Below are positions 7,580-44,454 of a stretch of 64,000 bases of DNA, piece after piece (positions within the stretch are counted from its first letter, which is position 1; the number at the start of each line of letters is the position of its first letter). The notes under the pieces were generated by a model. The model did no database searches. It was given only the letters and a program-made list of their open reading frames with translations, and was not told where the DNA came from. The position numbers and the translations under genes are program-made. Source of the stretch: Eledone cirrhosa (lineage: Eukaryota). Location of the stretch: assembly GCA_964016885.1 (NCBI GenBank), contig OZ024741.1, positions 231,880,001-231,944,000 of the forward strand. The letters run 5' to 3'.

Positions 7580-8464
7580 TATGCACACATACACATAAAC
7601 ATGTACACATATACCTGTATACCTACAGACACATTTATAAAAAAACATCTCTACATACATATATGTATACACATCTACTCAAGTGTTTAGTTCACATATA
7701 CATTGACGTGGGGAAGGGGAAATTAATCAAATGTTATTGTACCTCTGAGGCTTTTTCTTCTCTTCAGCGATCGAATGTTTGAAAGTACGGGTGTCATCAA
7801 TTATTTTTCTTTTTCAATATGAGATTTTTTTAAAGAAAAGAGAGGGGGAGAATTCCGTTGCTTGAAGATGGAATATCACTTTTTCCTGTTCAGTAGTGGT
7901 TTCTATTTTCTAATAAAGAATTCTTCTTTATATTTTCGGAAGTGTTCGTTGTCCGACCATATCTTAAATAAGGGGAAAATTGTGAAATTTCGCTTTCAGC
8001 ATGTTGCGAAGTGTTCACTGCATGTGGTGTTTCTGACAGAGGGGTCTCTAATTTGTTATTTGTGTACTCGAACTCTGTCATGTATGGGAAAGTCCAAATA
8101 AAATCCAAAACCAAACCCATAAGATACCCTCAAATTTGGGAATATGCAAAAACACAAGAAATGTAGAATTCTCACACTATAAACAAACATCAACCAGAAA
8201 TCGGAGAATCCCAAACACACAATTATACACAAACCAAACACTGAACACCAGAACCATATACAACTACTATCAAAACCCCAAGAACAATTACCAGCGGCAA
8301 AATCAAAGACATATGATGACCGAACGGAACAACAGAAGTACTAGACGCCCATATATCAACCTCTAAACAAAATACTACCGTTCAGAAAATTATCAACATG
8401 AAATGCCAGCGAACAGAACATTTCCCCACAACAGAAACACCGCCACCTCAAGTGGGAATTATTA

Positions 8465-8615
8465 TTTTTTGACGCATAGAGTTACGGCCCTTGCCATTCT
8501 GAATTCAAATCCTGCCGAGGTTAACTTTGCCTTTCATCCTTACGGCGTTGATAAAATAAAGTACCAGTAATACACTGGGTAATTGCTGGCCCTGTGCCAA
8601 AAGTAGAAACAATTA
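8465..8615 (+). mobile_element. 5'-truncated SINE inserted in the PLE
   Basis: SINE core and tail, flanked by duplicated ATTATTTTTT. Confidence 0.8.
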
Positions 8616-10914
8616 TTTTTTAGAATAAGGTGCCTCCCACCAAATGAAAGGAAAAAAGGAAAAAACACCACCCTTCAAGTGGCACCCGACGAGAAAACTC
8701 CAAAGGAACCAAAAATAATCCACATATCTGCAAAAAAACTAACACAACAGGAAATAAAATTGCTAGAAAATGGACTGAAATTCACACCCACTCCGAAAGC
8801 AGATCAAGCCGACCTTATAAATGCTACAGAAGATTTTTGTCAAATATTACGTCTAGGAGAATTCTTCCAGTGTATAGAATACGAGTAGGAATCACTAGTA
8901 AGAAACAAAAAGACCTTCAGGCCTCCGTTAAATAGAGACAAACAGCTGGAGGATTACATCACCTACCTCCTACGACAGCACAGTCAAATACTGCAGAGAC
9001 GAAACACAAACACAACATCCCTACAGACCAACTGCAAGCACTAAATAAACTATAAACATACTCCTCAATAATCATAAAAGAAGCGGACAAAGGTGGAGCA
9101 ATCGTCAAAAAACACTACAAGGATGTGGTCCTAGAACAGCTGAATACCGAGGACTTTTACAGAAAATCAGCAAAAACGAAGAAAGAATATCGATAATTAA
9201 AGTAGGAAAACTGACGACCAAGTACCAAAACAACCTCACACTAAAGGAAATCAATTACTTAACCAAATTCGAAATGAAAACCAGCAATTTCTATGGTTTA
9301 CCGAAGGTTCACAAATCCAGAGAAATCCAAAACAGTATAAAAGGCATCATATGTTGAAGTACCAAAACCGACAGATTTAGAATTACGCACAATTGTTGCC
9401 GGTCCAGCCTCAAGCACACAACATCTAAGCAACATATTAAACATCATACTGAAACCCTTATGTAAAAGAGTGCCAAGCTTTATCTGAGATGATATGCAAT
9501 TCCTTAACTATATCCCCCAGCAAGTACACCAAGAAACAATCTTAGTCAGCTATGACGTAACAAGCTTATATAATAACACCCTCCGCGACTTAGGAATTGA
9601 AGCTGTTGACTTCTGGATTACAAAACATCCAGACTATATTTCAGAGCGATTCCCCAAAAAATTTATTTTGGAAGGACACAAACTAGTACTGGAGAACAAC
9701 CACCTCCTTTTTGATAACAAATATATTTACAAATAAAAGAAACGGCTAATTGTACCAAAATGGCCCCAACATATGCAACACTCGGTATGAGCCACCTGGA
9801 GGCAAAATTATATTCCAAACTGCAGGAAACATTCCGTCATGACTTGACACCTGCATTAATCACAACTGGAAACGCTACCTAGACGACTGCTTCATCTTCT
9901 GGAATAGAAGCCAAGAAGACCTTCAAAGATTCTATTCCATCATAAACAATCTTCACGAAGAAATAAAATTCATCGTGGAATATAATAAAGAGGAACTACC
10001 GTTTCTGGATATCCTTATCATTAAGGAAGGGGAAAATATCAAAACGGACTTATTTTACAAACCAACAGAAACACACCAATACTTGAATTTCCGTTCAGCA
10101 CATCCATCACATACCAAAAGGAAAATTCCTTTTAACATGGCAAGAAGCATCTGCACCATAGTAACACATCCCACACTACAGGATAAAAGATTATATGAAT
10201 TAAAAGAATTCCTTAAGAGACAAGAATATCCGGTAAACCTCATCAACACAGCCATCTCCAAAGCCCAGAACATCCCAGTGTCAACATAGAAAAACAAAGC
10301 AACAAAATAGAATGGAAAAAACAGTTATTCCTTTTGTCATCACTCAAACTCCAAGGAATTTCAACATTGTAAAAGCCGCCAAACAATATCTCCCGATTCT
10401 CCAGCAGTCCCCTAAAATGAATGCACTCATGAAAGACGCACAAATAATATATAATAAACGCCAAGCACCCAACCTAAAGAAACTGCTTACCAACGCAAAA
10501 TGTACGTCTAATAATGACGCAATGCAAGTTAAGAAATTCGGGGACCCTCGATGCATAACCTGCGAACTCATTGAAGAGGGTGGACAAATCTCCTTTAAAA
10601 ACAACCAGTCTTTCACAGTTAATGCAAACATGAATTGCAAAACAAAAAACTTGATTTAATGTGCAACTTGCCAACAATGTAAAGAATACTACATTGGTGA
10701 AACCGGAATGGGTCTACATGACAGAGTTAAACAAAAAATTAGAGACCCCTCTGTCAGAAACACAACATGCAGTGAACACTTCGCAACGTGCAGGAAGCGA
10801 AATTTCACAATTTTCCCCTTCTTTGAGATATGGTCGGACAACGAACACTTCCGAAAATATAAAGAAGAATTCTTTATTAGAAAATACAAACCACTACTGA
10901 ACACAAAAACGTGA
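8616..10914 (+). pseudogene. PLE reverse transcriptase / GIY-YIG endonuclease ORF (disrupted)
   Basis: GLKFTPTP, FYGLPKVHK, LVSYDVTSLY, MAPTYA, WKRYLDDCFIFW, LPFLDILI, KPTETHQYLNFRSAHP, PRCITC and NLI*CATCQQCKEYYIGETG. Several stops and frameshifts. Confidence 0.9.
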
Positions 10915-16999: not shown

Positions 17000-18050
17000 A
17001 ATACTACTAGCCTCTCACTCAACAGTCGTTTTCTGCCGGCTCCACCTCCTTCCCTCCGTCTCACATATTACCCTGCCATCATCACCCTCTCGCCCCACTC
17101 ATTTGACTTGACCATCTTGATCACTTCCTGTTGCGCATGCAACATTCTATTTTAATCCTCTCCATTTTTTTATTCTCTTCATTTTGTCGACCCTACCACA
17201 ATGAATCTATCACTTGGATATCGACACGATTTTACATCCGGATGTTTAACATCCACATATATACACACCGAAATCCATTCAGAAACTTAGACACACACAG
17301 ACACTCGCACTATTTTCGCACACACACAACTACACATTTCCCTCGAACCCACATCGCCTACTGACACATCAGGCATCGTCGTCTCTTAACCACACAAACA
17401 CACACACGTGCACCCCACCTCTGGATTTGACACAATCTCATCTCACCCTATCCGAACCGTTCCATCCATACACATACACACCACAGCTACACCCATAAGA
17501 AGAGTATACACTCACAGACATACACTCCATTCCAAGACACAATGGGTTTTTAAAACCCACAATCACATACACACTCGCCTCTCGCACACTCTCGCGCTTA
17601 CACACACATCCACGGATACACGCACACACACCTACATTGAATAACACGCACACACCTCACCTTCCGCCATCCCCGCTCGGACTTCATTTTTCCTTCCCCC
17701 CTCGCACTACCCCACCCCACTCATACCTTACGCACCACCACACCCGTGCCTTCCATAAACCTCTCTCACTTTTTAATATTCTGTTGTTGTTTTTTTAATT
17801 CTGTGTTTTCTCTATATATTTCGTTTAATACTTTTTCTATTTAATTTCACTTCATGTTTTATATTATTTTTTATTTTTATTTTTCCCGCTAACTCCCCAC
17901 TCCCACCCGGAGTTCCACCCCCTCCCCTACTCTCCTGATGGAGGATTTATGTCCGAAACGTCGTTGACAACGTCCCCGCTCTCACCAAGCGTGAAGCTAA
18001 TTATACCATGTACCATTTACTCCTGCGTTTGTTTGTTTATTTGTTATTTC
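17000..18050 (+). mobile_element. C/A-rich degenerate repeat ending in a hammerhead-like motif (probable PLE pseudo-LTR remnant)
   Basis: CTGATGGA-GGAT-TTAT-GTCC-GAAACGT...ACGTC at 17935-17974, followed by (CT)n(TA)n. Confidence 0.4.
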
Positions 18051-18051
18051 G

Positions 18052-18125
<74 letters not shown>

Positions 18126-18412
18126 AAATAACGAAACGAAATTAAATTTCGTTTCGTTTGTAACTCACTTTTGTATGACTGACGCTTAAACTATTAAGTT
18201 AAAAATGTACATCCACATATGTATACTGAAATACTAGTATGCATATGAATACACACACGTGTACATATGTAGATGTACCGAGTTTTTCACTGGTCACTTT
18301 ACTGTGAGTGTCCAGATATTCTGTATGTAAACACACAGACAAACCGGTTTTTAGAGTCATACTGGTTTTTGAGGAAACACCTTTCCTCTATTCTCCAGAA
18401 AGCCAGACAGGG

Positions 18413-18457
18413 AATATTGGACTAGTTTCGATGTTGTTACATCTCATCAGCAATATT
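18413..18457 (-). ncRNA. Type I minimal hammerhead ribozyme (mirror copy)
   Basis: Exact reverse complement of 19003-19047. Confidence 0.9.
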
Positions 18458-19002
18458 TACCCATCTTCCGGCCTTTCTAGAGAATCGTAAAAACACATAT
18501 CGTTATATGATTTTTCTATGAAAATTAGTAGTGGGCAGACTAATTTGCATAGAGCGTGAGTACGTACCGGTTCAACGGAGACGATAAAAACAAATAACGA
18601 AACGAAATTAAATTTCGTTTCGTTTGTAACTCACTTTTGTATGACTGACGCTTAAACAATTAAGTTAAAAATGTACATCCACATATGTATCCAGATGTAC
18701 CGAGTGAAAAACTCGGTACATCTACATATGTACACGTGTGTGTATTCATATGCATACTAGTATTTCAGTATACATATGTGGATGTACATTTTTAACTTAA
18801 TTGTTTAAGCGTCAGTCATACAAAAGTGAGTTACAAACGAAACGAAATTTAATTTCGTTTCGTTATTTGTTTTTATCGTCTCCGTTGAACCGGTGCGTAC
18901 TCACGCTCTATGCAAATTAGTCTGCCCACTACTAATTTTCATAGAAAAATCATATAACGATATGTGCTTTTACGATTCTCTAGAAAGGCCGGAAGATGGG
19001 TA

Positions 19003-19047
19003 AATATTGCTGATGAGATGTAACAACATCGAAACTAGTCCAATATT
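19003..19047 (+). ncRNA. Type I minimal hammerhead ribozyme
   Basis: AATATTG (stem I)-CTGATGA-GATGT/AACA/ACATC (stem II)-GAAA-C TA G-TC^-CAATATT (stem I'). All core nucleotides are intact, and stem III is the palindrome ACTAGT. Predicted cleavage after 19040. Confidence 0.92.
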
Positions 19048-19527
19048 CCTTGTCTGGCTTTCTGGAGAATAGAGGAAAGGTGTTTCCTCAAAAACCAGTA
19101 TGACTCTAAAAACCGGTTTGTCTGTGTGTTTACATACAGAATAGCTGGACACTCACAGTAAAGTGACCAGTGAAAAACTCGGTACATCTACATATGTACA
19201 CGTGTGTGTATTCATATGCATACTAGTATTTCAGTATACATATGTGGATGTACATTTTTAACTTAATTATATATATATATATATATATATAATCTGCTCA
19301 CGCGGTCCACATGTCTGGAAACACCTTTTATATAACTACAAAGCTCCGGATTGAATAATTAGAACATTCTAATTTTCTAATCAAATCAAACATTTTAATC
19401 CGGACTTTCACAGTTATCTCTCTCACACATTTCGCCCTTTACCCGTGGTTTTGTATCGCTTGGGTGAAGTGTTCGTTTCTGCGCATGCACGTTCATATGG
19501 TTATCCTTCCTGTTCCGTATAACCATG

Positions 19528-19580
19528 ACCAGTCCGAACTGAAGATCCGTGTAAGGTGAAACAATTGTACCCGGTATGGT
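19528..19580 (+). ncRNA. Hammerhead-like motif (partly degenerate)
   Basis: CTGAAGA-TCC GTGTAA GGT-GAAAC-AATT-GTA with palindromic ACAATTGT stem III. Stem I pairs only partly (ACCA/TGGT, CCG/CGG). Lies in a ~310-bp segment between two (TA)n tracts. Confidence 0.55.
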
Positions 19581-19598
19581 GAACTAACTGTTGTGTTA

Positions 19599-19649
<51 letters not shown>

Positions 19650-19653
<4 letters not shown>

Positions 19654-20559
19654 AATGCATGTGTATGGTGAACATGTGTGCGTAAGTACATATATGAGGG
19701 TAAGTATATGTGTGTATGTGTGACCACAAATACGGATATAATATGAGTTGAAAAAGAAAATGATGATATAGTTGACACGCGTCCAGATACAGGTATTAAA
19801 TACACATACGAGTATGGAAGCACGCGTATAAACACACACACATGCACCTTTGTCTGTACGTATTTGTGTGTATAAATATTTTCTTTATAGATATATGTTT
19901 TTTATAGATATATGTGTATGTACGTGCGTCCCTATGTTTGTTTTCTTTTCTCTAGTGTTAATTGATTACTTTCTCTTTCATTTAAAAATGTTTTTCATTC
20001 TCATATACTGTTTCATTTTTATACATATATCGAGAATGACATTTCTTTTCACTATTACACTCCCTTCCCTATTTATCTTCCGCATATAGGTGACCGCGCG
20101 CGTGTGTGTGTGCTTATACGCGTGCTTTCATACTCGTATGTGTATTTAATACCTGTATCTGGATGCGTGTCAACTATATTATCATTTTCTTTTTCAACTC
20201 ATATTATATCCGTATTTGTGGTCACACATACACAAATATACTTGCCCTCATATATGTACTCACGCACACATTTTCACCATACACATGCATTTGTACATAC
20301 ATACATATGTACATTTGTAAGTGTATATACATACATATACACATACCTAACTATATTTCCTTATATTTTTTATATATTTTTTTATATTTTTTAATATATC
20401 TCTTGCATTACTTTTACTTATATATTTTTTGCATTTCTTGAGGAGACTTTCCAAATGTTTCACTATGTTTTATATTACCTTGTCCGACGAACAAATGAGG
20501 ATGTTTTTTTCCTATTCGTCTTATTCGGGAAACCTCTGATAATGAGGTAATTATATTGT

Positions 20560-42851: not shown

Positions 42852-44454
42852 CAGTGCCCCGCAAAAGTTTCCAACACATTAGGAAAAATGCGGTTTTAGG
42901 TATGTTTAATAAAGTTAGGGTAATGAAAATGTAACTACTGTTAGAACATATAACGAGGCAGTTAATGATACAATCATATTTTTAATAAAATAACAAGGAA
43001 ATAGCTCATGAAGAAAAATCAATATTTTTATAACGCAAAAGTTTACAACACATTTATTAAATCATCTCTTAATATTTCGTAGCGTAGCCTTTGTTGCTAA
43101 TTACAGCCTGTAGGCGTTTGGAGTAGCCTCCTACAAACTTCTTGCATGTTTCTTGGCTAATATTTTTCCATTCTTCACAACAAATTTTCAGGGATATTTT
43201 TAGTTCAGGGATATTTTGGGGTTTCCTTTTTTGAATTCTGAGTTTCAGTTCTCTCCACAAATTTTCGATCGGGTTAAGATCTGGGGACTGACTTGGCCAT
43301 TTTAGAACATTTATTCCATTCGTACTTAACCAAGATTGTGTTAGCTTTACAGTATGCTTTGGATCGTTATCTTGTTGAAAAAACCAAACTGGCTTTAAGC
43401 TGAGAGAATGTGCACTTTGATGTAAATTCCTTTGCAAAATACCTCTATAATAAGCGCCATCCATTCTTCCTTCTATTATTTCAATATTTCCTACACCTGT
43501 GGCACTAAAGCAACCCCAGACAATGAGTGATCCACCTCCAAATTTTACAGTTGGAATAGTATTCTTCAGCGAATATTCAGTACCTTTCTTTCTCCAGACT
43601 TTTGCCACAGCATTTCGACCAAAAAGTTCAATTTTTGTTTCGTCTGACCAAAGTACATCTTCCCAAAATGATGCTCATTTGCAAAGTTTAATCGACGAAG
43701 AACGTGTTTCCTCGTAAGAAGTGGTGTTTTCCTTGGAGACATCGAGAAGATATATCGATGTAGTGAACAACTAATTGTATCTGTGCTCAGTTTTACTCCA
43801 CTTCCTTCTAGGTCATCCTAAAGATTTTTAAGAGTACACCTAGGTTCGTTGCCAACCTTTCTTGTCAATAACCGAGCTGCACGTTCCGTTATCTTTCTAG
43901 GACGACCAGAACTAATTAGAGGACAGAGGGAATGATGAGATTTCAAGTGACGAATTATAGTACCAACTGAACTCAATGGCACATTTAACTGACAAGATAT
44001 CTTTCTATAACCAACACCATATGTATGAAGGTCTACAATGCGTTTACGGAGGTTTTGATCAATCAGTTTATTTTTCCCCATATTGTCAATGTTTACAGGA
44101 CGGTTGTCAATGTTTACAGGATGGTTGTCAGACAAATAATGACGTATGTTTTTAAGTGTCCTTAGAAGTTACCTTAAACTTAATCAAGAACATTCTACTG
44201 AATTTTAAATCTGAAAATTTAAGAATGTTCTTGAAAAAAAAGCGATAAATATAAAATGTGTTGTAAACTTTTGCGTTATAAAAATATTGATTTTTCTTCA
44301 TGAGTTATTTCTTTGTTATTTTTTTTTAAATATGATTGTATCATTAGATGCCTAACTATATGTTCTATCAGTAGTTACATTTTCATTACCCTAACTTTAT
44401 TAAAAATACCTAAAACCGCATTTTTCCTAATGTGTTGTAAACTATTGCGGGGCA

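Follow-up and report, generated by a model that had tools for sequence, protein, structure and literature searches.

The locus described here represents a single inserted copy of an abundant family of non-LTR retrozymes. It lies in a stretch of 64,000 nt of Eledone cirrhosa DNA, below called the window (contig OZ024741.1 of assembly GCA_964016885.1, positions 231,880,001 to 231,944,000). The family is new and has insertion anatomy of the type of Penelope-like elements (PLEs); its component parts were known before, as retrozymes, PLE tails and the link between them are already published. To judge by sequence, one fixed short end and one fixed long end form the signature of a PLE 'tail'. We consider it likely that an insertion of two arrays results when a PLE enzyme starts reverse transcription at each of the two nicks and copies, turn after turn, a single monomer circle that carries A-to-I edits.

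Positions 18118-19268 of the window consist of two inverted arms of a 466-nt unit, set within (TA)n target tracts (18075-18122 on the left, 19269-19291 on the right). The repeat period at the locus is 466. One full unit on the plus strand, 18703-19168, serves as the reference, with 18703 as unit position 1, and the predicted hammerhead cut follows unit 338. The left arm (18118-18690, minus strand, 573 nt) runs from unit 68 to 466 and on to 174, with its 3' end pointing outward at the long end. The right arm (18703-19268, plus strand, 566 nt) runs from unit 1 to 466 and on to 100, with its 3' end outward at the short end. Unit 101-174, the candidate PLE-type tail, is present at the left end only (18118-18191, minus strand) and contains a 13-bp hairpin at 18130-18158. 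The 5'-to-5' junction (18691-18723) has 12 inserted nt, ten of which are a fold-back copy of the start of the right arm; this creates a 13-bp hairpin with a GAAAA loop at 18693-18723. AACGAAACGAAATT hairpins occur at 18130-18158, 18596-18624 and 18836-18864, and the unit folds more stably than 100 shuffled versions of it (z -8.6). The locus contains no ORF as long as 150 aa, and an RT + GIY-YIG ORF is absent from the element.

Both arms contain a candidate minimal type I hammerhead. The plus-strand motif (19003-19047) has a 7-bp stem I formed by 19003-19009 and 19041-19047, CTGATGA at 19010-19016, a 5-bp stem II, GAAA and GTC, with the cut predicted after 19040; its stem III is the palindrome ACTAGT. 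The mirror hammerhead on the minus strand starts at 18450 (whole motif 18413-18457), is identical, and has its predicted cut between 18420 and 18419. The Rfam model Hammerhead_HH9 matches both motifs with 37 bits (E 1.5e-7 and 2.1e-7), below its gathering score of 52. Rfam matches to miRNA hairpins were treated as generic hairpins. The cores are well conserved in the family: none of 11 core columns varies, compared with 114 of 387 elsewhere (p 0.038; p 0.07 in a smaller set), and the core is invariant across 83-85 loci per column. One pair of stem II is A-U in 42 loci and U-A in 40 and is never broken (82/82), although this swap is probably a single event. The cleavage-site triplet is GUC or GUU across the family. 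Covariation according to RNAalifold is weak, with double changes in 6 of 140 pairs, and an intermolecular stem III is predicted at -6.2 kcal/mol. Minimal hammerheads of animals were reported to need dimers and to cleave poorly (Cervera 2014). Runs X4-X6, labelled as three other organisms, yielded single unit-length contigs of the repeat (495-497 nt, two of which wrap round, at a depth of 4.5-11); tandem DNA gives the same picture, and these runs were not accepted as RNA evidence.

An earlier note on this DNA had described two arms with few differences, hammerheads on both strands with the palindrome ACUAGU as stem III, the hairpin at the centre and further hairpins in the unit. All of these are seen; 498 nt of the arms align with 4 mismatches, and there is one more in the terminal part. 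The expected stronger conservation of the core relative to its neighbours was also found. The arms had been placed between 18126 and 19268; the right end stands, and the left end is actually at about 18118-18120, its last bases being hidden by a G>C substitution, private to the window copy, at unit 167. The description as young fits the family, which was recently active. The window copy itself is only middling young, with an internal divergence of 0.8% (rank 51 of 74 loci); 8 of the 74 have no internal difference at all. Its near-equal arms and centre hairpin are peculiar to this copy and not the family layout; the near-equality is incidental, because arm lengths are uncorrelated family-wide. 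The AGT-GAAAA-ACT of the unit itself may have allowed a 3-bp snap-back and then a 10-nt extension at this junction.

Other repeats surround the insertion. Directly to its left, at 17935-17970, there is a hammerhead-like motif with a non-canonical core, relatives of which are absent among the fetched loci. On the right, 19292-19603 is the end of another repeat family that has a degenerate hammerhead motif at 19539 and stops at (TA)n at 19604; its relatives in eight fetched loci have a short end and a longer continuation. A further inverted repeat, with 240-nt arms of 91% identity, lies at 19606-20339 and is flanked by (TA)n runs. Broken coding fragments of a Neptune-type PLE occupy 7888-10905 in both orientations, and an ORF at 43069-43674 resembles, as judged by eye, the C-terminal part of a Tc1/mariner transposase.

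The family is found at thousands of sites in the 3.0-Gb host genome. Exact matches to a 24-mer from the unit number 9,694 genome-wide, against none for a control. A DNA search gave 232 matches from 40 scored of 348 candidates; many lie in head-to-tail arrays, and tandem arrays reach 31 units. Loci were sampled by similarity (33, set A), by position on contig C1 (25, set B) and as 60 consecutive loci chosen on the long end (set C). Sets A and B, the window and one locus met by chance (L114) form the first 60 loci, 49 of which are two-armed. All 49 are divergent: the minus arm precedes the plus arm, the 5' ends meet and the 3' ends point outward. In 44 of them one outer end is at unit 94-106 (short) and the other at 170-175 (long), the remaining five have one broken end, and none has two ends of a kind. 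The same rule is followed by 17 of the 18 two-arm loci of set B alone. Eleven of the first 60 loci are apparently one-armed, and several of these retain a remnant of the second end. Among the loci of set C, 37 with two arms and four with a mini-arm have a short far end; in five it is off-rule and in 11 absent. Three loci, including L186, run off their stretch, and L186 and L200 were scored by eye. In the pooled set, all 75 of 75 pairs whose two ends fall on fixed sites are long plus short, with one exception met afterwards, the long plus long locus L227. A possible short plus short pair is listed at C1:141.07 Mb, and about a fifth of the loci have a single arm or an off-rule end.

The short end is usually at about unit 100-105 and the long end at 174, with a tail of 69-74 nt between them. 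As the insertions lie in (TA)n, a target-site duplication would be masked. Exact ends joined to (TA)n were counted genome-wide, with 2,277 long and 1,267 short ends and none for the controls; the short-end pattern is narrower (restricted to a subfamily), and the ratio of these counts is no test of pairing. Loose (TA)n ends in public runs X2 and X3 are at 18807 and 18876, the same two places. The earlier note had the two arms end at different points of the unit. These points are not arbitrary; they are two fixed sites common to the whole family, and the palindrome is its normal insertion layout. The note's inference of two priming events and of a recently active family with a unit of about 466 nt is supported, and head-to-tail arrays elsewhere in the genome were indeed found.

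A second, related hammerhead family, with 865 candidates, has the same back-to-back layout (L114:8584-9901 and L132-L162). Its unit is about 470-520 nt with an internal variable (TA)n, and its tail is about 62 nt. The ends are at 55-61 and 120 in all seven loci where both could be read, two of these loci being likely duplicates. The core and ACUAGU are kept, whereas the stems differ and the triplet is GUA. A diverged relative of this family was observed at L223:8624-9695.

Sequence divergence within arms averages 0.43%, compared with 0.34% between the arms of a locus and 4.6% from locus to locus. Even the youngest loci have two long arms; in L102, 22 pieces have no differences. On the ribozyme strand, the 58 rare locus-fixed variants in 104 loci include 28 A>G and four T>C changes (p 8.5e-6). 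Here 'rare' means present in at most two or three of the about 104 sampled loci, out of thousands, and since this sample is about 4% of loci, some rare alleles may be inherited from an unsampled parent. L183, an apparent duplicate of L182, and 68 ragged columns were left out of the variant table. In contrast, 197 single-unit variants include 21 A>G and 19 T>C changes (Fisher p 3e-9 against the locus-fixed set). C>T changes are not raised among the rare locus-fixed variants (four cases). The A>G events cluster, with five or six per locus in four loci. Rare alleles fixed in an arm, as defined on one arm, recur in the other arm in 38 of 42 cases, and in 25 of 25 cases if they are A>G. In L054 and L191, A>G sets private to the locus are present in all units of the two arms. 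That the change is strand-specific whichever way an arm is oriented speaks for sense RNA as the template, and the presence of A>G changes in every unit, with no single-unit excess, requires a bottleneck through a monomer, most simply a circle.

One alternative is that double priming by the PLE enzyme takes place on linear, uncleaved multimer transcripts, that the arrays grow and are homogenised by unequal crossover, and that the hammerhead is a passenger. Indeed, older arrays have periodic shared variants (39 shared and 150 singleton). Long arrays have a higher-order periodicity of about 2-7 units (L046, L032, L039, L124, L126), the period of shared variants being five in L046 and four in L032 and L039. 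Thus some length was probably gained later or from multimeric templates. The PAc hammerhead was reported to be dispensable for insertion in vitro (Frangieh 2024, PMC11167929), and Li et al. 2026 (bioRxiv 10.64898/2026.07.22.740005) invoke local amplification and report cleavage in one of nine dimers. However, edited multimers predict an excess of single-unit A>G changes, and the counts are nearly equal. Private A>G sets throughout both arms, as in L054 and L191, need a monomer bottleneck, loci as young as L102 are already long on both sides, and the ribozyme core is conserved. On this balance, linear multimers are an unlikely general template.

A different question is what causes the A>G excess if the remaining model is kept. 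Selection for G-U wobble pairs or polymerase error could replace ADAR. Candidate edited sites, among them unit 212, 213, 390, 391 and 408, show no enrichment in stems (16/28 compared with 82/126), and the neighbour signal is weak, the depletion of 5'-G at A>G sites being not significant (p 0.16). ADAR editing of the RNA is thus a putative source of the changes. However, positions predicted to be unpaired show the bias as well (12 of 44 A, 1 of 39 U), and wobble selection therefore fails as an explanation; the C>T count and the clustering of events in four loci also argue against a cause other than editing. We regard such a cause as quite unlikely and retain ADAR as the probable source.

Arm lengths have a median of 572 nt and a maximum of 14.3 kb, and 131 of 166 arms cross the ribozyme site. 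Arm stops are not enriched at the ribozyme cut (4 of 133 within 3 nt). The stop profile is uneven (chi2 p 0.0007), but this is largely an artefact of the unit border. Among 88 junctions, 21 have an overlap of at least 3 nt, where 6.4% would be expected for random blunt joins, and 40 have insertions, some of them due to subfamily differences from the reference unit. Fold-back copies were recorded by a crude rule at 8 of the 88, the window included. In L199 (3018-3267), a retrozyme arm ends with a 10-nt fold-back and is directly followed by the 3' end of a copy of PLE family E; the join is either a template-switch chimera, and then a clue to the partner, or the result of a later deletion between neighbours.

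The window copy, with near-equal arms and a snap-back centre, resembles the product of self-priming fold-back. In that process the centre hairpin would be the starting point, and one arm would be a copy of its partner or, as Arkhipova 2013 discussed, of an antisense template. A few true mirror junctions exist (L166, L172, L198), and palindromes at PLE junctions have been published (Arkhipova 2013, PMC3846280). However, the length of one arm shows no correlation with that of the other (rho 0.13, p 0.25), and only 3 of 75 pairs agree to within 10%. The arms mostly start at unrelated unit positions, each has its own fixed outer end, and the A>G bias is on the ribozyme strand in both. As a general rule fold-back is disfavoured and seems improbable, and it may apply to the last 10 nt of the window junction.

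DNA-level repeats often insert at TA, form tandem arrays and have inverted arms at their termini, and the present element has no ORF, as would be expected if it were a satellite, a MITE or foldback element or a Helitron-like repeat with a chance hammerhead motif. In fact, its ends are 70 nt apart in the unit, so the termini are not identical, the ribozyme core is invariant and the layout is shared with coding PLEs. The A>G bias tracks the RNA-sense strand in both orientations, which is not expected from a DNA process, and we consider this origin very improbable. Inverted repeats and (TA)n are difficult to assemble, but the window arms differ at five sites, the rule recurs in more than 100 loci and two families, and public runs, which may be related to the source of the assembly, give the same ends, so that an assembly artefact is hardly conceivable.

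A search with PF01541 gave more than 10,000 GIY-YIG candidates in the genome. ORFs with both RT and GIY-YIG are 780-1,096 codons long, and most have the CxxxxCxxC linker, which Craig 2021 (PMC8557442) assigns to Neptune/Nematis. In one coding PLE family, numerous copies are 98-100% identical and have long open frames. The coding PLEs have inverted arms and ends paired at (TA)n, 36, 39 and 66 nt apart. Among 50 PLE loci compared (40 GIY-YIG flanks and ten long family-B loci), a small part of the candidates, none shares sequence with the unit, and the loose (TA)n ends in public runs gave no coding element that shares it. PLE family A, with a 66-nt tail, is a partner candidate on tail length alone. 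Long ORFs near the sampled copies are separate LINE or PLE insertions. An inner ORF of L084 was considered as a partner and rejected as a LINE: L084:2447-7212, inside a retrozyme locus, has tandem 5' repeats and a 1,040-codon ORF with endonuclease, RT and a PHD finger. Another observation concerns the 3' regions of coding Neptune-type PLEs in L104, L109, L115, L117, L122 and L223. They contain a hammerhead-like motif with UUGAAAA or UUGAUAA in place of CUGANGA and the palindrome ACCGGU; we take the altered core to resemble a compensated 3-8 pair.

The probable course of events under the edited-circle model is as follows. The minimal hammerhead would cut transcripts of an array, probably as a dimer held by the ACUAGU palindrome, and ligation would yield 466-nt circles. 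ADAR may then edit some of these RNAs, leaving the observed A>G bias. A putative GIY-YIG/RT protein of a PLE would cut both strands of (TA)n and start cDNA at unit 100-105 and 174. The cDNAs have a mean length of about 1 kb and continue beyond the ribozyme site, presumably by rolling. The 3' ends of the two cDNAs would be joined by microhomology, bluntly or in a templated way, in the window after a 10-nt snap-back. Later block duplications may account for the periodic shared variants of older arrays.

Several parts of this model have precedents. Cervera & de la Pena 2020 (PMC7229834) showed retrozyme circles and their ligation by RtcB and mentioned RNA editing only as a potential cause of heterogeneity among circles; the word 'inverted' is absent from the available text of that paper. 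Li et al. 2026 link retrozymes to pLTRs and leave mobilisation open, and 'tail' does not occur in the text available. The present family is similar to animal non-LTR retrozymes in that its tandem units are non-coding, low in GC and have one type I hammerhead each, in its dispersed arrays and in the presence of PLEs in the same genome. Its unit of 466 nt is slightly above the quoted range of 150-450, and it differs in having a minimal hammerhead of the PLE type, 5'-to-5' array pairs, two fixed ends and shared A>G sets.

With EN+ PLEs (PMC3846280, PMC8557442, PMC11167929) the family shares head-to-head arms, a tail at one end only, (TA)n targeting, a minimal hammerhead and a variable inner junction. 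Craig 2021 described an inverted 5'-truncated PLE copy, a 30-40-bp tail at one end and a bias to (TA)n. According to Frangieh 2024, the PLE protein cleaves and extends both strands, and two internal RNA start sites bound the tail. Non-autonomous Chlamys elements of green algae, such as MRC1 (Craig 2021), are also PLE dependants with multicopy head-to-tail insertions; their similarity to their partners lies at the 3' end, and hammerheads are missing from most Chlamys. Unlike EN+ PLEs, the family has no ORF, its arms are multi-unit arrays of up to 31 units, and its tail is 69-74 rather than 30-40 nt, one coding family of this genome having 66. In L1 twin priming, two cDNAs from both sides of a break are joined by microhomology into an inverted insertion. 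Here, in contrast, each cDNA starts at a fixed internal site, and the arms consist of a single unit in repeated form. The strict long plus short rule for paired arrays and the editing stamp were not found in a literature search that covered main texts, and supplements may bear on their novelty.

In the published work consulted, the choice between sense and antisense template (Arkhipova 2013), the origin of tandem and inverted PLE structures, and that of retrozyme arrays (rolling circle or unequal crossover) are left open. The family offers natural products by the thousand, in which both start sites are resolved to the nucleotide and a molecular barcode lies within the sequence, and young intact PLE proteins are present in the same genome. 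Thus the form of the template, its polarity and the partner could be tested in the published in vitro PLE assay. The chances are somewhat better than even that each insertion is a DNA record of one ribozyme-made, ADAR-edited monomer circle copied many times round by two PLE reverse transcriptases at once, each from its own fixed start site. If this is true, it would be direct genomic evidence that retrozyme arrays of animals arise at full length by rolling-circle reverse transcription. The inverted arm of PLEs would derive from dual priming on sense RNA, and A-to-I edits would be written back into the germline in bulk.
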